The notes: generated by a model from the letters alone, not told the origin. Positions 18,004 through 51,621 are shown, counted from the stretch's first letter. The stretch: 64,000 bases of DNA from Bacteroidota bacterium (GCA_013289475.1 JABCZW010000002.1:12265-76264); one strand, 5' to 3'. Made by a program: numbers and translations.

Positions 18004-18075
18004 GGCGCCGTAGTTCAATGGATAGAATAGAAGTTTCCTAAACTTTTGATATAGGTTCGATTCCTATCGGAGCCA
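18004..18075 (+). tRNA. tRNA-Arg (anticodon CCT)
   Basis: Hand-folded 72-nt cloverleaf. Acceptor GGCGCCG/CGGAGCC has one G4:A69 mismatch. D arm GTTC-AATGGATA-GAAT. Anticodon arm GAAGT-TTCCTAA-ACTTT. 4-nt variable loop. T arm ATAGG-TTCGATT-CCTAT. Discriminator A, no encoded CCA. Confidence 0.85.
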
Positions 18076-18096
18076 CTGGGTAAATAAACCCTTTTG

Positions 18097-18274: not shown

Positions 18275-19312
18275 ATGAAAAGAATCTCTTTAATGACTGT
18301 AGTTTCGGCTATAATAATGGCAATAGTTAGTAGCGGCTGTAAAGACAGGTATGTTGAAAAAATGAATTATACTTTTGTGGTTGCTGGCGATGACAGGGTT
18401 GCTCCTGAAGATACCGCAGGGAATCCGAGTACCATAAATATATACCATTTCAAACGCCTACTTGCAGAAGTAGCTCAACTCAGCCCTTTACCTAAATATT
18501 TGTTCTTTAATGGCGATTTGGTGTTGGGCTATACAGGCCATGATACTGTTAAACTGGCAAACGAACTAAGGGCTTGGATAAAGTTGTATAAAGAATCCCC
18601 TTTAGCTTCAAGTGGTGTGGAGCTGGTTGCCATACCCGGTAACCATGAGATTGTAGAAAAAGAAGGTTCAGGGAAAATAGCATTTGTAACAAATGAGAGA
18701 ATATTTGTGAGAGAGATGCATGATTACATACGGGGCGATAATGGCCCAAAAGCTACAGGCTTTGTTCCGGGAACAGATAGCTTATGGACAGATCAAAGCA
18801 GATTATCTTATTCATTTGACTTTGGAGGAGATCATTTTGTTATACTTAGCACCGATGCAGTAGCCCGTGAGAGCCGTATATCATGGCACTGGTTAAAAAA
18901 TGATTTAAAAGATGCTCATGAGAATGGTGCAAGGCATATATTCCTTTTTGGGCATAAACCTCCATTCCCGTCTCATTACGAATCTGAATCAGGTATGGAA
19001 GAGTTTAAAGCCAGTCGGGATAGTATGTGGGCCGTAATTGAAAAATATAATTGCGATGCTTATTTTGGATCTCATTTCCATTTATGGGATTCTGTGCAGA
19101 TGCACAAAGGCAAAACATGGGAAATAGTTTGCGGTAATTCGGGTGCACCAATGGGAAAAGACTGGCCACAAAGTTATTATGGTTATACAATTGTTGGTGT
19201 TTCTGATAAAGTTGATATTACAAGCATGGGCCATGATGTGGATAAGGAGCATTATACGGCTCCTACGCCTGATAAACCAACCACAGTACGCGCCAAGTTT
19301 ACTATTCAATAA
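18275..19312 (+). CDS. Calcineurin-like metallophosphoesterase lipoprotein
   Basis: 345-aa ORF. Lipobox AIVSSGC. MPE motifs VVAGDDRV, NGDLVLG, IPGNHE, LFGHKPP, GSHFHLW. Confidence 0.8.
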   Translation: MKRISLMTVVSAIIMAIVSSGCKDRYVEKMNYTFVVAGDDRVAPEDTAGNPSTINIYHFKRLLAEVAQLSPLPKYLFFNGDLVLGYTGHDTVKLANELRAWIKLYKESPLASSGVELVAIPGNHEIVEKEGSGKIAFVTNERIFVREMHDYIRGDNGPKATGFVPGTDSLWTDQSRLSYSFDFGGDHFVILSTDAVARESRISWHWLKNDLKDAHENGARHIFLFGHKPPFPSHYESESGMEEFKASRDSMWAVIEKYNCDAYFGSHFHLWDSVQMHKGKTWEIVCGNSGAPMGKDWPQSYYGYTIVGVSDKVDITSMGHDVDKEHYTAPTPDKPTTVRAKFTIQ

Positions 19313-36412: not shown

Positions 36413-37636
36413 ATGAATTTTATAGATATTCATTGTCATCCTTCAATGAAAATTAACTTATTCAATCGCCACATTTATGATGTGGCTCATCCTGGAGGTA
36501 CCGGGCTTGAATTCAGCACTAATATGTTTGTCAATCTTCCTAATATGAAAACAGGAGGAGTTAATGCCGCTATTTCAGTGCATCATATACCTGAAATTGA
36601 ACTACAGGATGATGTGAAAAGAAGAGCCATCGGGAATTTGTTGGTTGATACACTTGATGGAGCTTGTGGCCCTTATATGAGCAGAAGATTTCAGGATATT
36701 TCTACTCCTACTGCTGCATTTGGACAAATGAAGGCAATAATTAACAAATTCGAAGATGATGTTGAAGCTGCAACGAGGATGCCGCATAATTTCAAAGCGG
36801 CCGTAGCAAAGAGCCTTACTGAATTTAATCACTTAATCAGCAATGGGTATACAGTATTTCTTCATAGCATAGAAGGAGCTCATTGTCTTGGCATTAATAG
36901 TTTAGATTACAATACTGTTGAACCAGAAATAATAGCATTATTTAATGCAGGCGTTTGCCAGTTTACATTAGGTCATTTTTTTGAAAATGTTCTTGTTTCT
37001 TCTTCGGGTGGTATTCCGCCAAAAATAGCTGATTTAATAGACTATAACACTGGAAATAATTACCCGGCTGGATATAATCCAGCAACAGCACAACAAGCAA
37101 TAGCTAAAATGTTAGACCTCGGTATAATTATTGATCTTGTCCATACTCATAGTTCTGCCAAACAAATGATTTATACTCTAAACAAAAATAGGGGTGTTGA
37201 TAAAAGACCGCTTGTATTTTCTCATACAGGAATACAGGAAATTGCGTTAAAGTATAACCCCAAAATGCCTCAACAATATTATGAGTATTTACCCAATGCC
37301 ACAGATATTGCCGAAATACGCGATTGTGGAGGTGTGCTTGGAATTATTTTTATGGATTATTGGCTTGAAGGTAATGAAAGCACCCAAGCGGCAATAGATA
37401 TAGTAATTGAAACAATTCAGTTTATTGCTGCTAAGTGCGGCAGCAAGTACGATAATATTGCAATAGGATCAGATTTGGATGGATTTACAGAGGTTCCTAG
37501 AGATCTTTCTGGTTCTGATAAAATGCCTGCTTTGATTGATGCAATGTCGAGAAGTGGTATACAGATGAGTGACATTGAAAATATCTGTTTCAATAATTAT
37601 ATGCGAGTGCTGAAAAACGGCTGGGGTAAGCAATAA
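36413..37636 (+). CDS. Peptidase M19 (membrane/renal dipeptidase-like) family metallohydrolase, divergent, no signal peptide
   Basis: 407-aa ORF. The motif series IDIHCHP, SIEGAHCL, TLGHFFEN, IIDLVHT, VFSHTG, IGSDLDGF follows the M19 metal-ligand order (DGHND / EG / L.HF / D.SH / SHS / G.DFDG). Confidence 0.7.
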   Translation: MNFIDIHCHPSMKINLFNRHIYDVAHPGGTGLEFSTNMFVNLPNMKTGGVNAAISVHHIPEIELQDDVKRRAIGNLLVDTLDGACGPYMSRRFQDISTPTAAFGQMKAIINKFEDDVEAATRMPHNFKAAVAKSLTEFNHLISNGYTVFLHSIEGAHCLGINSLDYNTVEPEIIALFNAGVCQFTLGHFFENVLVSSSGGIPPKIADLIDYNTGNNYPAGYNPATAQQAIAKMLDLGIIIDLVHTHSSAKQMIYTLNKNRGVDKRPLVFSHTGIQEIALKYNPKMPQQYYEYLPNATDIAEIRDCGGVLGIIFMDYWLEGNESTQAAIDIVIETIQFIAAKCGSKYDNIAIGSDLDGFTEVPRDLSGSDKMPALIDAMSRSGIQMSDIENICFNNYMRVLKNGWGKQ

Positions 37637-37646
37637 ATAAAATTCT

Positions 37647-39026
37647 ATGGCAAAAAGAGATAGTAAAGATCTTATTGGGCTTAGTCGCTCTCCATTGATA
37701 AACAGATATTTGTCTGATCAGGAAGCCAAAACTGGTGCTATTCCCGCACCACCTAAAAATAAATTTTCAGGCTTACTTGATACAAACGTAATAAGCTGGA
37801 TTGTGCAGAATCTTCCAGCCCTATTCCGCGATCATGCACCATATCAAACATACAAACAAGGGGAAGGTGTTTTTTCTATGACAACTACTAAAGGGCGGAA
37901 TAAAGCAAATATTGCATTACTTGCCGATTGGGCTTCATGCACTAGTGAATCCGAAAGAGTAGCAGGACTTGTTGGAAAGAAGCACCCCGATTATTCTATT
38001 CACTTGGGTGACACTTATTTTATTGGTAATGAAACACAGGTAGAGGAAAATTTCGGGAAAGATGGGGCATGGCCCAAAGCACCTTACGGGAATTTTGCAC
38101 TGATTGGCAACCACGAAATGTATTCAGGTGGTGATGCATATTTTAAAACTCTGCTTCCATATATGGGCATATTGGAAGGGGGAAAAATTACAAGTCCACA
38201 AAAGGCCCCTTTCTTCTGTTTAGAAAATGATTATTGGCGTGTGATAGGTATAGATACAGGTTATGATTGCCTTTCAGGTCCATTTAGTAATAATACTTCA
38301 CTACAACTGCCACCCCAGCTTATGGAGTGGCTATGGCACACTGCTAAGTTAAATAATGATAAGAAAGGGCTTATCTTTCTGTCACATCATCAATATTGCT
38401 CAGCATTTAAACAATTACCCAATGCTAAATTTGATTGGTTCAATGAAGAAGAGTTTCAGGAACCAGCGAAACAATTAGCAGCACTGATTGGCCAGGACCG
38501 CCCTGTAATATGGTTATGGGGGCATGAGCACAGATTGGCAATATATGGTTGCTACCAGGTTGCCAACGGTATAAAAGCATTTGGTCGGTGTATAGGTAAT
38601 GGCGGTATGCCATGCGACTTGGTTTATAACCCATCCAAAGCATTTGGCCTTGATACCTCAACTGATAATAATGATATTATCCAATACTCACTAGATCAGG
38701 TCAAAGCGAGAAAAATACAGGCACAAACCAGTAAGTTGGTTTTGCAGGATAACCGATATGTGCAGGAAATATCGGGCGTAAGATTAGGTCATAATGGATA
38801 CACCATGCTCTCCTTTGATAATGAAGCATTAACTATAGATTATTATGACGATGCTTTGTCGTATCCAATTATTACTGAAAAATGGACTATCAATCTCGCA
38901 AATGGACAGTTGAGAGGAATAAATATTGTAGATGCGACCAAAGGCAACTATCCGAATAATGATTCTGATATAACCAAGTTGTTTCATTTTTCATCTGATA
39001 TAAATGATGCAATAACAATAAAATAA
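37647..39026 (+). CDS. Calcineurin-like metallophosphoesterase, cytoplasmic type (no signal peptide)
   Basis: 459-aa ORF, 10 nt after the dipeptidase gene. Motifs ALLADWAS, IHLGDTYF, LIGNHEMY, IFLSHHQ, WLWGHEHR. Confidence 0.8.
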   Translation: MAKRDSKDLIGLSRSPLINRYLSDQEAKTGAIPAPPKNKFSGLLDTNVISWIVQNLPALFRDHAPYQTYKQGEGVFSMTTTKGRNKANIALLADWASCTSESERVAGLVGKKHPDYSIHLGDTYFIGNETQVEENFGKDGAWPKAPYGNFALIGNHEMYSGGDAYFKTLLPYMGILEGGKITSPQKAPFFCLENDYWRVIGIDTGYDCLSGPFSNNTSLQLPPQLMEWLWHTAKLNNDKKGLIFLSHHQYCSAFKQLPNAKFDWFNEEEFQEPAKQLAALIGQDRPVIWLWGHEHRLAIYGCYQVANGIKAFGRCIGNGGMPCDLVYNPSKAFGLDTSTDNNDIIQYSLDQVKARKIQAQTSKLVLQDNRYVQEISGVRLGHNGYTMLSFDNEALTIDYYDDALSYPIITEKWTINLANGQLRGINIVDATKGNYPNNDSDITKLFHFSSDINDAITIK

Positions 39027-39081
39027 CTATGGAGCTAGCCGAAAATCCAATTAAGAGTAGGCATATTTAATTATAAATAAT

Positions 39082-39738
39082 ATGGAGCCCTTTCTTTCTC
39101 ATCCCTCTTTGACGTTCTGGGTAATTTATATAGCCCTCTTAACTTGTTTTTATTTCTGTGATAAAAAATTTGAGATGCTTCGTGATATAAGTATGGCTGA
39201 TCCTAAGCCATATAGTTTTTCACGTGTTCAACTGGCTTGGTGGACTGCTATAGTTCTGGCTGCATTTATAAGCACTGCGCTTATACAAAACCACGTACCT
39301 ACTTTATTGGATTCTACTCTGTATTTAATTGGCATATCAGGTGCCACAACAGCAGCAGGCAAAGTGATAGATTCTTCTGATAAACGGAATCCAGATATTT
39401 CCCGTCACCAGGATTCAAAGGGTGATAACTTTCTTCTTGATATACTTTCAGATGAGAATGGTATAAGTATTCACCGGTTTCAAACAGTAGTTTTCAATTT
39501 TGCCTTCGGTATTGGGTTCATTATTCATGTATTAAGACAGCTAAATATCCATGATAATGTTGTTAAGCTTCTTAATCCTATGTTAGATATCACACCCAAT
39601 AATCTTATATTACTAGGTCTTAGTTCGGCAACTTATATAGGATTGAAAACAACTGAAAACTCTACAAGTACTCAGCCACCAGTTAATGAGTTTATTAAGG
39701 ATGAAGGAAAAAGTGATTCGACAATTCCAAAAGGATAA
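39082..39738 (+). CDS. Multi-pass membrane protein of unknown function (4-5 predicted TM segments)
   Basis: 218-aa ORF. Hydrophobic segments LTFWVIYIALLTCFYF, LAWWTAIVLAAFISTALI, LYLIGISGATTAAG, FQTVVFNFAFGIGFIIHVL, LILLGLSSATYIGL. Its stop lies 3 nt before the amidase start. Confidence 0.55.
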   Translation: MEPFLSHPSLTFWVIYIALLTCFYFCDKKFEMLRDISMADPKPYSFSRVQLAWWTAIVLAAFISTALIQNHVPTLLDSTLYLIGISGATTAAGKVIDSSDKRNPDISRHQDSKGDNFLLDILSDENGISIHRFQTVVFNFAFGIGFIIHVLRQLNIHDNVVKLLNPMLDITPNNLILLGLSSATYIGLKTTENSTSTQPPVNEFIKDEGKSDSTIPKG

Positions 39739-39741
39739 CTT

Positions 39742-40518
39742 ATGGGAAACATGAATATAATTAAAAAGACCTGCCCCAATTATTCTACTGGCAGAACAGG
39801 CTACCGGCCGGAAGCTATTGTAATACATGTTATGGATGGCACTTTAGTTGGTACCGATAGCTGGTTTGCGAATCCACAGTCAAATGTTTCTGCTCACTAC
39901 GGTATTGGAAAAATAGGGGAAATACATAACTACGTTGTTGAGGAAAATACAGCATGGCATGCCGGAAGAATTAATACTCCATCTTGGAAATTGATTAAAC
40001 GGACAATCAATGGCGATTATATTAATCCTAACCTCTATACTATAGGTATTGAACACGAAGGTACTGTTGACAGTGACTGGCCAGAAACTATGTATCAATC
40101 AAGTGGTAATTTAATAGCCCAGATTGCTGCAAAATGGAATATTCCTATCGACAGACAACATGTTATAGGACATCATGAAATTTATGCCTTAAAGCCATGC
40201 CCAGGTAATAAAGTTGACATGAGTAAATTAATTGCAGTGGCTATAGGAGATATAAAGACACACCTGGATGCAATTGCTAATCCAACCCCTTTGCAAGGAT
40301 CAGGACTAACTATATGCGCGTTAAATATGCGATTTAAACCTAACAGAGATATAGCACCTGTCTATACTGTTAACAAAGGGACAGTTTTAAATTATGTAGG
40401 CTATAGTGACCAAGGTGAAAATATAAATAAGGTTAGCAAGTGGTATTGCACCGAAGATGGTTTTTGGTTTTGGGGTGGTGGAGTTGAAAATAATTCAACA
40501 GTAGATCAGAAACATTAG
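39742..40518 (+). CDS. N-acetylmuramoyl-L-alanine amidase (Amidase_2/PGRP type) with C-terminal SH3-like wall-binding domain, no signal peptide
   Basis: 258-aa ORF. IVIHVMDGTL..SAHYGIGKIGEIHNYV..NTAWHAG, IGIEHEG, HVIGHHEI...CPG (zinc-amidase signature). The C-terminal ~90 aa (ALNMRFKPNRDIAPVYTVNKGTVLNYVGY...WY) is SH3b-like. Confidence 0.85.
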   Translation: MGNMNIIKKTCPNYSTGRTGYRPEAIVIHVMDGTLVGTDSWFANPQSNVSAHYGIGKIGEIHNYVVEENTAWHAGRINTPSWKLIKRTINGDYINPNLYTIGIEHEGTVDSDWPETMYQSSGNLIAQIAAKWNIPIDRQHVIGHHEIYALKPCPGNKVDMSKLIAVAIGDIKTHLDAIANPTPLQGSGLTICALNMRFKPNRDIAPVYTVNKGTVLNYVGYSDQGENINKVSKWYCTEDGFWFWGGGVENNSTVDQKH

Positions 40519-40535
40519 TAAAAAAACCAAATCAA

Positions 40536-40626
40536 AATGCATCACTTTTGCTTCACCATGAAGGAAGCATAATAGTAAACTCTTTATTAATGGCGACTCT
40601 TAGAAAGGGTTCGATTCGGGAGTCTC
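40536..40626 (+). repeat. Intergenic repeat unit A (aatgcatcac block, 73 nt, then gttcgattc tRNA-T-loop-like block)
   Basis: It shares 22 of 26 nt at its 5' end and the gttcgattc block, at nearly the same spacing, with unit B at 41435-41531. Confidence 0.6.
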
Positions 40627-40666
40627 TTAAATATCAGCACTTAAAATCTAGTATATTTGTTTTCCT

Positions 40667-41209
40667 ATGAGTACTGAATTTAATACCGGTTCACGTGTTG
40701 AACATCCCGGCTTTGGTAAGGGAGTTATTGTGTCTGTAGAAGCTGAATATTATGTGATATGGTTTAAGTCCCAGCAAGGCACTAAGATTGTAAACAAGAA
40801 TGAAAACTTGCAGTTACTCACAGTCTCTGACAATGGGCCAATTAATATAACTGTAACGCTCGGTGATATTGAAGATGCACTTGAACGAATACTGAACAGA
40901 AGAATAGATACTTCAGAGACTATTCCTATGGCTATAAAATGGAACAAAGGCACATTAGTATTTAAACCGGCTGAAGCCGAAGTTCAATCAAAGGAGATAC
41001 CTATCGAGACTTTCTTCCACAAAATTGTGATGGTGCGCGATAAACTACGGGTAATGGAACAGAAAATTAATGCCCATAAAATGCTGACTGATTATGAAAA
41101 GGTGGAATTGCAGCAATATATAACTGGCATTTATGGCTCACTTACTACATTTAATATACTATTTAAAGACAGCGACCACCATTTTAAAGGTGTAGTTGGG
41201 AAGGAATAG
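40667..41209 (+). CDS. Hypothetical protein with N-terminal DUF3553-like (UvrD C-terminal Tudor/SH3-like) segment
   Basis: 180-aa ORF. GSRVEHPGFGKGVIVSVE resembles the G..V.H..FG.G.V signature. The remainder is predicted helical and unassigned. Confidence 0.45.
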   Translation: MSTEFNTGSRVEHPGFGKGVIVSVEAEYYVIWFKSQQGTKIVNKNENLQLLTVSDNGPINITVTLGDIEDALERILNRRIDTSETIPMAIKWNKGTLVFKPAEAEVQSKEIPIETFFHKIVMVRDKLRVMEQKINAHKMLTDYEKVELQQYITGIYGSLTTFNILFKDSDHHFKGVVGKE

Positions 41210-41434: not shown

Positions 41435-41531
41435 AATGCATCACCTTTGTATCACCTTGATTAGGGTGTTGATTATAATGTATTGATAAACAATGAATTG
41501 TATTAAAAAGTTCGATTCCTATCGGAGCCAC
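41435..41531 (+). repeat. Intergenic repeat unit B, ending in a perfect 22-nt copy of the tRNA-Arg 3' end (candidate attR)
   Basis: 41510-41531 gttcgattcctatcggagccac is identical to 18054-18076 minus its first base, that is T-loop through discriminator plus 1 nt. The 5' block contains the direct repeat atcacctt-N3-atcacctt. Confidence 0.8.
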
Positions 41532-41560: not shown

Positions 41561-41790
41561 TTCATATTTATTCAAGTGCCTGAAAATCAACACTAATTTT
41601 TTTATACAGATTCGATTCCTTTCAGGAATCGCCGGAAAATGTTTCACCTCTGGGTAGATTCCTCTTCTACTTTCCATGAACGGCATAACATTCTACAAAG
41701 TAGTTCTTTCATTATAAGGATAAATAATGACGCCTAAATATATAAAAGGAAACAGGAAAATGAAATAATTATAAGATTAATCTCATGTGT

Positions 41791-50223: not shown

Positions 50224-51621
50224 TCAATTAATAAATTTCTTCATTCCATGAATTATTCCTTTGCAATTGGACATGCCACAGAAACATTTAAATGGTTTCA
50301 TGGTTTCATCATAAATAGAAGAATAATCGAAGGTTAATTCTTCTTCTTTATTAATATCTGTTTTTGCATGGACATTTAAACCCACATATTCTGTGTTTGG
50401 GTTACAGGAATGGTTTTGTGGAGCCCAATTGTCCGGGTTCTCATTCCAGATAATATAAACTTCATTGCTAATTGGAACAGCATAACGCGCAAAAACATCC
50501 TGCTCTTCTTTGCTCCAATTTTCCTGAATCCATTTTCTTGTTACAATCCTGTGCGGTTTTTCTTCTCCACGAAAAATAATCTCTCCCTTAGCTATATCTT
50601 TAGTGGAATAAATCCCATATCCGGAAATACTGTTCCCTTGTCTTTTATACACTATTTGATTTCTCTGAAACCTTGCTATCCCTTCTTCAATAATATGCTT
50701 TAAGAAACCTGATTGACCAACACCATCAAAATCTAATATATAATCGGCTGTGCCTTTATGAATGCCAGTATAAAAAACTGAACAAGCAAAGTTAATTTCA
50801 AGAAAATAAAGATTATCATTGGTGTCTAACCGAAAGTCTAGTCTTGCATAACCATGCCCATTAAAAGCTTCAAAAATACATTTGCTGTATTCCTTCAACT
50901 GATTTTCGAATTTTGATTCGCAGGGAATGTTTGCATTGGAGGAGAGAAAAGAAGTTTTCAAGTCGTATGACTTATATTCATATCCTTTGGGAAATATATA
51001 TTCAACGGGTTTATATACTGTACTCGTTTTCCCATCAGCATTAGCGGCAACCAATACTGAAAATTCCCTACCTGCAATATATTCTTCGATAATGAGAGAA
51101 GCATAACTTTTAAAGAGTAGCTCGGCTTTTTTCTTTAAATCAGATTGATTTGTTATAAGCGAATCTTTATCAATACCTAAACTATCACCGGCATGAGCAG
51201 GTTTAATAAATAAAGGGTAATTCATTGCTCCAACCTTATTCTCGATATTGTCTCCTGTTTGAATAACCACAAAAGACGGTGTTTTAATATTTGCTGCATA
51301 AGCAACATATTTCATTAATTCTTTGGAAGGGTCGTACAAAAATGAAGCCGGCCCCGTGTGCGGTAACTTCAAAGTCTCAAGAAAGTACACTACATCAATG
51401 GACGGAATGTCCCAATCGAGGTAACCCTCGCATAAATTTACAAAAATGTCATAGCTTTTATTTGATAATGATTGTAGCTGCTTAAATGTAGTAAGTTTAT
51501 TTATAAAAACATAGTCAATATGACTTCCTGGAAATAAGTCGTCCAAATTTCTTGGAGGATCATAGTTTCTGTAATCTACTTTACTTGCCGAATAATCAGG
51601 CTGGAGTATACATATTTTCAT
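50224..51621 (-). CDS. Fusion protein: D-Ala-D-Ala-ligase-like ATP-grasp domain plus C-terminal SET / post-SET methyltransferase domain
   Basis: 465-aa ORF. ATP-grasp strings YPLFIKPAHAGDSLGI, LIIEEYIAGREFSV, GYARLDFRLDTNDNLYFLEINF. SET strings GYGIYSTKDIAKGEIIF, APQNHSCNPN, ELTFDYS. Post-SET CFCGMSNCKG (CxCxxxxC). Confidence 0.75.
   Translation of the reverse strand: MKICILQPDYSASKVDYRNYDPPRNLDDLFPGSHIDYVFINKLTTFKQLQSLSNKSYDIFVNLCEGYLDWDIPSIDVVYFLETLKLPHTGPASFLYDPSKELMKYVAYAANIKTPSFVVIQTGDNIENKVGAMNYPLFIKPAHAGDSLGIDKDSLITNQSDLKKKAELLFKSYASLIIEEYIAGREFSVLVAANADGKTSTVYKPVEYIFPKGYEYKSYDLKTSFLSSNANIPCESKFENQLKEYSKCIFEAFNGHGYARLDFRLDTNDNLYFLEINFACSVFYTGIHKGTADYILDFDGVGQSGFLKHIIEEGIARFQRNQIVYKRQGNSISGYGIYSTKDIAKGEIIFRGEEKPHRIVTRKWIQENWSKEEQDVFARYAVPISNEVYIIWNENPDNWAPQNHSCNPNTEYVGLNVHAKTDINKEEELTFDYSSIYDETMKPFKCFCGMSNCKGIIHGMKKFIN

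Follow-up and report, generated by a model that had tools for sequence, protein, structure and literature searches.

Five closely spaced genes in a 64,000-nucleotide (nt) stretch of Bacteroidota bacterium DNA (GCA_013289475.1, JABCZW010000002.1:12265-76264; hereafter the window) raise the question whether an M19-like dipeptidase, a metallophosphoesterase, a multi-helix membrane protein, an Amidase_2 hydrolase and a further small protein (gene 5) constitute a single system directed at the cell wall, as had been proposed in a sequence-only reading of the window. The open reading frames (ORFs), shared strand and intergenic gaps (10, 55, 3 and 148 nt) on which that proposal rested are all correct, as are its domain assignments (M19, Metallophos, multi-helix membrane protein and amidase with an SH3 tail), which agree with the Pfam and structure model results, and an N-terminal hydrophobic leader is absent from all three enzyme translations, as it had stated. 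The cluster is the tail end of a longer run of ten plus-strand genes, and strand and spacing alone are therefore unremarkable. Comparison across genomes points to a smaller unit within it, consisting of the membrane protein and amidase genes, preceded by an RNA motif.

The membrane protein and amidase genes form a conserved pair

Gene neighbourhoods were surveyed in the contigs of five homologues and in 79 loci from species-representative genomes (loci are L-numbered below), in which ORFs were called and clustered with our own scripts. Proteins and RNAs were compared against Pfam, NCBIfam, PHROGs, PADLOC-DB v2.0.0, Rfam, PDB, BFVD and two phage collections, IMG/VR (2.9 million viral contigs) and INPHARED (50,697 phage genomes). 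Adjacency of the membrane protein and amidase genes was counted over 77 loci, in 55 of which an Amidase_2 gene is the next gene after the membrane protein gene on the same strand, with a gap of 3-33 nt in 53 and a wider one in two. In the window the membrane component directly precedes the amidase, as noted in the earlier reading, with a gap of 3 nt, or of 12 nt if the amidase start of the public gene call (39751) is used. The pair spans the Chitinophagaceae, Sphingobacteriaceae, Bacteroidales, Ignavibacteriota and Kryptoniota, stands alone in many of the surveyed loci, and in the sampled Niastella and Longitalea species occupies a constant chromosomal position adjoining dnaK.

No relative of the membrane protein was found in IMG/VR or INPHARED, and this absence, together with the stable position beside dnaK, suggests that the pair is owned by the cell and is not a phage remnant. 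The idea of a prophage-derived lysis cassette, which the sequence-only reading had entertained, finds no direct support, and a prophage origin was rejected given this absence and the lack of phage genes in any neighbourhood examined, the flanks of the window locus included.

A family of secreted proteins of 310-430 amino acids, with no Pfam match apart from one weak XhlA match, is encoded shortly after the amidase gene in five loci of different lineages (L018, 12550-13494; L020, 11814-12998; L027, 3060-4004; L039, 12899-14203; L086, 7670-8887), and could represent a third component acting on the outer membrane.

The amidase resembles endolysins

The active site of the amidase is conserved, with H29, E104, H144 and K151 invariant in the alignment, while the third zinc-ligand position is occupied by C152 or, in a second subfamily, by Asp. 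These two distinct catalytic subfamilies have a common C-terminal SH3b-type domain. In the window protein the SH3_3 match is weak and sub-threshold (E=0.017); among its relatives it is significant (E=4.9e-09, 36.7 bits, cutoff 27; and E=8e-06), and the motif LNxR..P..G..WY..G.WFWSGG is kept across the amidase family, so that the SH3b tail is confirmed at the family level. The possibility that this C-terminal domain serves as a targeting domain shared with neighbouring proteins was rejected, as it is found only in amidases. By a crude N-terminal hydrophobicity test, 49 of 52 related amidases are leaderless, against a background in which 40% of proteins have an N-terminal hydrophobic segment.

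Endolysin and amidase families of PHROGs match the window amidase (scores down to 1e-18), its catalytic domain shares 31-45% amino acid identity with annotated endolysins of phages of Gram-positive bacteria, and its nearest relatives in the phage collections are endolysins. Amidase_2-SH3_3-Phage_lysozyme fusions are encoded directly after the membrane protein gene in L013, L065 and L086, while L073 has a free GH24 lysozyme upstream of that gene and L054 a PG_binding_1 protein in the place of the amidase. These features suggest that the hydrolase is endolysin-like and catalytically intact and that it acts on the polymeric wall.

A membrane protein family with no Pfam entry

Clustering at 90% gives 342 homologues of the membrane protein, most of them in Bacteroidota, and a profile search recovered 4157 clusters at 50% identity (E<=1e-3), with distant relatives found on proteobacterial megaplasmids. 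Its AlphaFold2 model, built from a 44-sequence alignment (predicted local distance difference test, pLDDT: 81.5; predicted template modelling score, pTM: 0.72), consists of five long helices together with a small two-loop beta element. Annotation of this product against Pfam and PHROGs returned no family, holin families included, and a fold search with the model found no match in PDB or among the viral predicted structures of BFVD at E<0.2. Invariant polar residues are numerous (D35, S37, R48, Q50, W53, W54, D97, D120, D124, R132, Q134, K189 and E192), the most conserved loops read ML(R/K)D..PYS.SRVQLAWW and LDILSD.NG.SIHRFQ, and the C-terminal tail is acidic and ends in Gly. Positive charges are concentrated in loop 1, loop 3 and the C-terminal tail. 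Because of this positive-inside count, and because long forms exist with a signal peptide and an additional N-terminal domain, the protein is predicted to lie in the inner membrane with its N-terminus outside and its C-terminus inside; in this topology the conserved loops and the C-terminal tail would be cytoplasmic, where the hydrolase is made.

The long forms are many within the superfamily and carry, behind the signal peptide, a presumed periplasmic domain of 170-250 amino acids ahead of the five-helix core (for example L080, 9440-10594; L087, 9464-10621; P0384-P0477; L097, 4405-6453); their N-terminal domains have no match in Pfam or PDB. A relative on a Rhizobium plasmid contains a coiled-coil insert of approximately 250 amino acids in the cytoplasmic loop 1 and is located near a LysM-M23 peptidase gene.

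A DUF805b RNA motif precedes the membrane protein gene

The 55-nt gap ahead of the membrane protein gene holds a match to the Rfam family RF02914 (DUF805b) over the full length of the model (38.5 bits, gathering score 35.6; E=2.4e-07 over the whole window), ending 18 nt upstream of the start codon. This is the sole non-tRNA Rfam match in the window and had been overlooked in the earlier reading. Its hairpin has a stem of 4 bp and a conserved GCCGAAAA loop, and AGAGUAGGC comes after it. The hairpin together with AGAGUAGGC is found 5-30 nt ahead of the membrane protein gene in 18 other distinct loci, and thus in at least 19 including the window. Its stem covaries, with 85.5% of cells paired and 28 double-change cells, a result reached by 0/500 shuffles; the exchanges are CG<->GC and GC<->AU, and shifted registers collapse. 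A covariance model of our own, built from these motif instances, gave 32 matches in 1.56 Mb (31 at E<0.001), all of which, except the weakest (E=0.94), are on the strand of the membrane protein gene. About 20 of these lie directly upstream of that gene, and the remainder precede other small or membrane protein genes nearby. A conserved small protein encoded after the amidase was considered as a third component and rejected, since the motif-carrying small ORFs are not homologous to one another.

The DUF805b hairpin appears to control expression at the 5′ end of the membrane protein gene, and since it stands directly before this gene in related loci, the pair seems to have its own putative control element even where it follows other genes. 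The name DUF805b we take to imply an association with DUF805 genes. The hairpin and conserved 3′ tract found here are those of RF02914, but by Pfam the product of the downstream gene is no DUF805 protein: among 44 members of the membrane protein family there is not one DUF805 match even at E<=10, and homology to it was rejected. An association of this motif, which is not mentioned in the main text of Weinberg 2017, with the membrane protein gene would therefore be new.

A DUF805b-like motif is also seen near the cassette ahead of another conserved membrane protein family (N-terminus MFN.V.LDV.IGLVFI..; L055, 5159-5449; L073, 1344-2545; L075, 8799-9854). The Niastella and Longitalea loci lack a DUF805b-type motif and have a different conserved, hairpin-containing leader (..AAATCCGGCATTCCCTTTGAAAGTAAAGGGATTGTC..) approximately 40-90 nt upstream of the membrane protein gene (L012, L017, L021, L022, L024, L026, L029, L030, L034, L052, L062 and L081).

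A HisKA_3-type kinase and response regulator are linked to the cassette in about ten loci. Across several genera, a four-gene set encoding a response regulator, a HisKA_3-type kinase with a single helix, a membrane protein with multiple helices and a protein of 103 amino acids accompanies the membrane protein gene, divergently in L037, L048, L063, L072 and L085 and upstream on the same strand in L039, L067 and L080. It resembles envelope-stress two-component modules. No homologue of this two-component system, of the Tle1-like lipase or of the FAD oxidase found at other loci (see below) is present in the window.

The five-gene cluster is a juxtaposition

The M19-like product, encoded first in the cluster, contains the motifs DLVHT, FSHTG and GSDLDG, which align to the metal-binding and catalytic motifs (His, His and Asp) of GliJ and of renal dipeptidase (DPEP1). 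Its first motif is HxH (H7-C-H9), whereas the canonical M19 motif is HxD, and the protein is probably a binuclear metallohydrolase of a variant M19 subfamily, for which about 80 clusters were found in the same phyla as the cassette. The metallophosphoesterase conserves the GD, GNHE, HH and GHEH motifs, with the Asp of the first motif kept and its His replaced, has a C-terminal extension of approximately 150 amino acids, and has no sequence relative in PDB.

These two genes recur together elsewhere. In L088, L089 and L090 an M19 gene and a Metallophos gene are neighbours or stand one gene apart, their order varies, and the cassette is absent; in L088 the phosphoesterase follows the M19 protein, and the two share 47% and 58% identity, respectively, with their window counterparts. 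The M19-like protein and the metallophosphoesterase thus appear to form a separate recurrent pair that is separable from the cassette. A DUF805b-like motif at 16460-16501 in L088 precedes a gene approximately 6 kb downstream of this stand-alone pair; together with the motif ahead of another membrane protein family near the cassette, this hints at a physically clustered regulon. M19-like genes of two subfamilies are also located within 10 kb of the membrane protein gene in 8 of about 80 loci, which by our estimate is well above the chance expectation from one or two copies per genome.

The loci closest to that of the window (membrane protein 68% identical) harbor a Metallophos gene, the membrane protein and amidase genes, then a FAD_binding_4/ALO oxidase gene and two other genes. 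Their phosphoesterases are 71-74% identical to that of the window and occupy the same position upstream of the pair; neither M19 nor a homologue of gene 5 is present. The family that includes gene 5 is very large (at least 8000 clusters; 57-88% identity; approximately 181 amino acids), and its members have neighbours elsewhere that are unrelated to this cluster. The gene 5 product gives a weak Tudor-like (PcrA/UvrD) signal and is predicted to have a small beta-barrel at its N-terminus, although the AlphaFold2 model is of low confidence (pLDDT 60), and gene 5 is probably an unrelated bystander.

The two pairs recur separately and the neighbours of gene 5 are unrelated; the window cluster is therefore a juxtaposition of an M19-phosphoesterase pair, an RNA motif-membrane protein-amidase cassette and an unrelated conserved gene (Table 1). 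The five genes are not syntenic as the module once envisaged, in which gene 5 can no longer be counted as a member. What stands of the proposed cluster are four of its genes, as two recurrently linked pairs. The notion of an undescribed wall-directed unit holds for the membrane protein and amidase, a cassette of which no description was found in Pfam, PADLOC, PHROGs or a literature search.

Table 1. Features of the cluster, from ORF calling and Rfam search on the window
Feature	Position	Strand	Evidence
M19-like metallohydrolase, 407 amino acids, accessory	36413-37636	+	Peptidase_M19 E=3.7e-27 (95.7 bits, cutoff 26)
Calcineurin-like metallophosphoesterase, 459 amino acids, accessory	37647-39026	+	Metallophos 31.8 bits (Pfam cutoff 21.5)
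DUF805b RNA motif (RF02914), putative cis-regulator	39029-39063	+	38.5 bits, covariation
Five-helix membrane protein, 218 amino acids, core gene 1	39082-39738	+	AlphaFold2 model, no Pfam family
Amidase_2/SH3b hydrolase, core gene 2	39742-40518 (true start probably 39751)	+	Amidase_2 E=1.5e-26 (93.7 bits, cutoff 26)
Gene 5, ~181-amino acid protein family	40667-41209	+	No Pfam family; probably unrelated to cluster

Proposed function and alternative explanations

We tentatively propose, while holding it somewhat short of probable, that the membrane protein-amidase pair is a chromosomal cassette for regulated autolysis or release, in which a holin-like protein is coupled with an endolysin-like enzyme and to which accessory hydrolases are loosely attached. 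The amidase, translationally coupled to the membrane protein gene and made without an export signal, would build up harmlessly in the cytoplasm until the membrane protein, as a holin-like gate or releaser, allowed it to reach the periplasmic sacculus. The outcome might be a regulated local opening of the wall or autolysis of the whole cell. Control would be exerted by the DUF805b hairpin and, in other genomes, may be supplemented by the divergent intramembrane-type histidine kinase and response regulator. The M19-phosphoesterase pair, which in this genome would have docked upstream of the cassette, most plausibly acts on material released by lysis, such as stem-peptide fragments containing D-amino acids and phosphoester-linked envelope components, or its products may merely be co-released.

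Four observations weigh against this proposal. In approximately 22 loci the gene downstream of the membrane protein gene does not encode a wall hydrolase (examples being Endonuclease_NS, Schlafen and P450/GST proteins). A protein of five helices and more than 200 amino acids, with strong conservation (mean column identity: 43%), is unlike a typical holin. The long forms of the superfamily, with their periplasmic domains, look more like sensors than pores. Furthermore, there is no evident spanin-like or other outer membrane-disrupting gene at the window locus, where the next gene is unrelated.

The resemblance to phage holin-endolysin cassettes extends to the membrane protein gene just upstream of a signal-less hydrolase at a distance of a few nt, the Amidase_2 and SH3b build of that hydrolase, at times with a GH24 lysozyme, and the charged, presumably cytoplasmic, C-terminal tail of the membrane protein. 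The differences are the size, helix number and conservation of the membrane protein, which falls into no holin family and has no relative in the phage collections, the lack of spanins and phage neighbours, the stable chromosomal position and the cassette's own RNA motif. The cassette would work like a phage lysis cassette or a type 10 secretion system, yet it is set apart from both in the holin family, phage context and spanin by which these are recognized. The hydrolase and the non-phage context are directly observed, while the membrane protein would be holin-like in function.

A chromosomal parallel is offered by CidAB and LrgAB of Staphylococcus, holin-like membrane proteins for which a role in governing both the access of murein hydrolases and programmed lysis has been proposed, themselves regulated by a two-component system. 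The two-component link is common to both, but the membrane proteins have no sequence or fold relation, and in the Cid/Lrg operons, unlike the pair described here, the hydrolase is not encoded next to the membrane protein.

If our proposal is true, Bacteroidota and their relatives own a widespread, non-phage device for opening the wall, built from a new membrane protein family and endolysin-like enzymes, which would explain how, in these phyla, wall hydrolases without a leader gain access to their substrate. The orphan DUF805b motif would acquire a concrete target, and in abundant soil and freshwater bacteria the cassette would be a candidate means of regulated autolysis, of releasing vesicles or enzymes, or of defence against phages. 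With no Pfam entry and no structural relative, the membrane protein family is a clean target for a first characterization. A wider generalization, which we consider possible but doubtful, is that the five-helix proteins constitute a large unrecognized superfamily of gates or sensors, switched by DUF805b and coupled to lytic effectors that are interchangeable (amidase, lysozyme, nuclease or lipase). They would then represent a new class of programmed lysis or immunity native to Bacteroidota, Ignavibacteriota and related phyla and mechanistically unrelated to phage holins.

The variety of partner genes bears on two alternatives. One, which we regard as unlikely, is an anti-phage or abortive infection module, in which the membrane protein is a sensor of infection or of damage to the envelope that frees an interchangeable killing effector, here the amidase and elsewhere a nuclease, Schlafen protein, lipase or phosphoesterase. 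Endonuclease_NS stands directly in the place of the amidase in L071 and L076, SLFN_AlbA_2 is found in L041 and Patatin in L001 and L085, and other effector-like partners are DUF900, EEP, pYEATS and a Tle1-like lipase, the last of these in seven Niastella loci and, independently of them, in L058. Conflict-type neighbours include bpX0/1/3 and insertion sequence elements (L001), SocA_Panacea (L002), and VapBC and BrnT near a distant relative, and the sensor-like long forms would suit such a role. These effector-like neighbours are, however, mostly confined to one or two lineages, while the pair is stably placed beside housekeeping genes across a whole genus. The pair is associated with an RNA motif and a two-component system and has neither NTPase nor nucleotide-signalling components of the kind usual in defence systems. 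None of the five cluster proteins matches a PADLOC-DB model even at E<=0.1, and a literature search found no published defence system of such composition, as a result of which assignment to a known defence system was rejected.

The other alternative, to our minds no better placed than defence, is release of the type 10 kind, whereby the membrane protein and amidase would open the envelope so that adjacent leaderless enzymes exit, these being the M19-like protein and phosphoesterase in the window, and lipases, oxidases and nucleases elsewhere. Known type 10 loci are clusters of holin, wall hydrolase and leaderless cargo (PMC10847048, PMC10109510). Systems of this type, such as ChiWXYZ of Serratia, the lysis cassette of Yersinia entomophaga and TcdE/TcdL of C. 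difficile, likewise represent domesticated, cell-regulated cassettes of non-phage holin and wall hydrolase, and near them are genes whose products, degradative enzymes or toxins, have no signal peptide. Degradative genes do recur in the operons around the pair, namely M19 (4), Metallophos (4), FAD_binding_4/ALO (4), Endonuclease_NS (2) and Patatin (2), with the Tle1-like, DUF900 and EEP proteins, Schlafen, DUF3604 and a PLC-type phosphoesterase as further partners, and the M19-like protein and phosphoesterase of the window are leaderless. The accessory proteins as a whole are, however, not enriched for leaderless forms, with a hydrophobic N-terminal segment by the crude test in 38/100 against 368/908 in the background (Fisher p=0.67), and enrichment of leaderless cargo was rejected. 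Several, including the M19 protein of L001, DUF3604 and Endonuclease_NS, have Sec or Tat signals of their own. Moreover, the M19-phosphoesterase pair also exists without the cassette, many loci contain the pair of membrane protein and amidase genes but no candidate cargo, and no spanin was found. The membrane proteins of the named type 10 systems are not homologous to the one described here, and those systems belong to Proteobacteria and Firmicutes, whereas the cassette is found in Bacteroidota and related phyla.

Muropeptide scavenging, in which the membrane protein would import wall fragments for dismantling in the cytoplasm by an AmpD-like amidase, the M19-like protein and the phosphoesterase, is the least likely of these explanations and seems to us quite improbable. 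It would accommodate the lack of leaders in all three enzymes, the proximity of M19-like genes to the cassette, M19 enzymes being known to cleave dipeptides with a C-terminal D-residue, the AmpG/AmpD-like arrangement of a leaderless Amidase_2 enzyme beside a membrane protein, and a weak AmpD match (E=1e-13). That match, to the AmpD equivalog NF008758 of NCBIfam, reaches 51 bits against a curated cutoff of 143, the membrane protein is no major facilitator superfamily permease and resembles no transporter family or fold in Pfam or the fold search, and nuclease and lipase partners fit such a pathway poorly. An AmpD-like cytoplasmic recycling role is hard to reconcile with the SH3b tail and the GH24 lysozyme fusions of the amidase family, which, with its endolysin matches in the phage collections, strengthens an objection already raised in the sequence-only reading.

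Setting of the locus in the window

The surroundings of the cluster are those of a typical Bacteroidota chromosome, with type IX secretion system cargo, PorP/SprF, a TonB-dependent receptor and metabolic genes. The only tRNA gene in the window is tRNA-Arg-CCT (18004-18076), the last 22 nt of which (18055-18076) are repeated exactly at 41510-41531, 23.5 kb downstream, where 0 matches are expected by chance. The tRNA-bounded segment at whose distal end the cluster had been placed is therefore real; no integrase is seen within it in the window gene calls and annotation. A stretch of approximately 95 nt holding the repeat (41435-41531) has a degenerate second copy at 40536-40625, just before gene 5, which is thus bracketed by tRNA-3′-end-like repeats, and a third T-arm-like fragment follows at approximately 41610-41635. 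The repeats resemble remnants of att sites left by successive integration events.

At the proximal end of the segment, directly after tRNA-Arg, lies a gene for a second, unrelated calcineurin-like phosphoesterase (18275-19312). Beyond the distal repeat, a minus-strand gene (50224-51621) encodes an unusual fusion, which combines an ATP-grasp domain of the D-Ala-D-Ala ligase type with a SET (lysine methyltransferase) domain in one protein.

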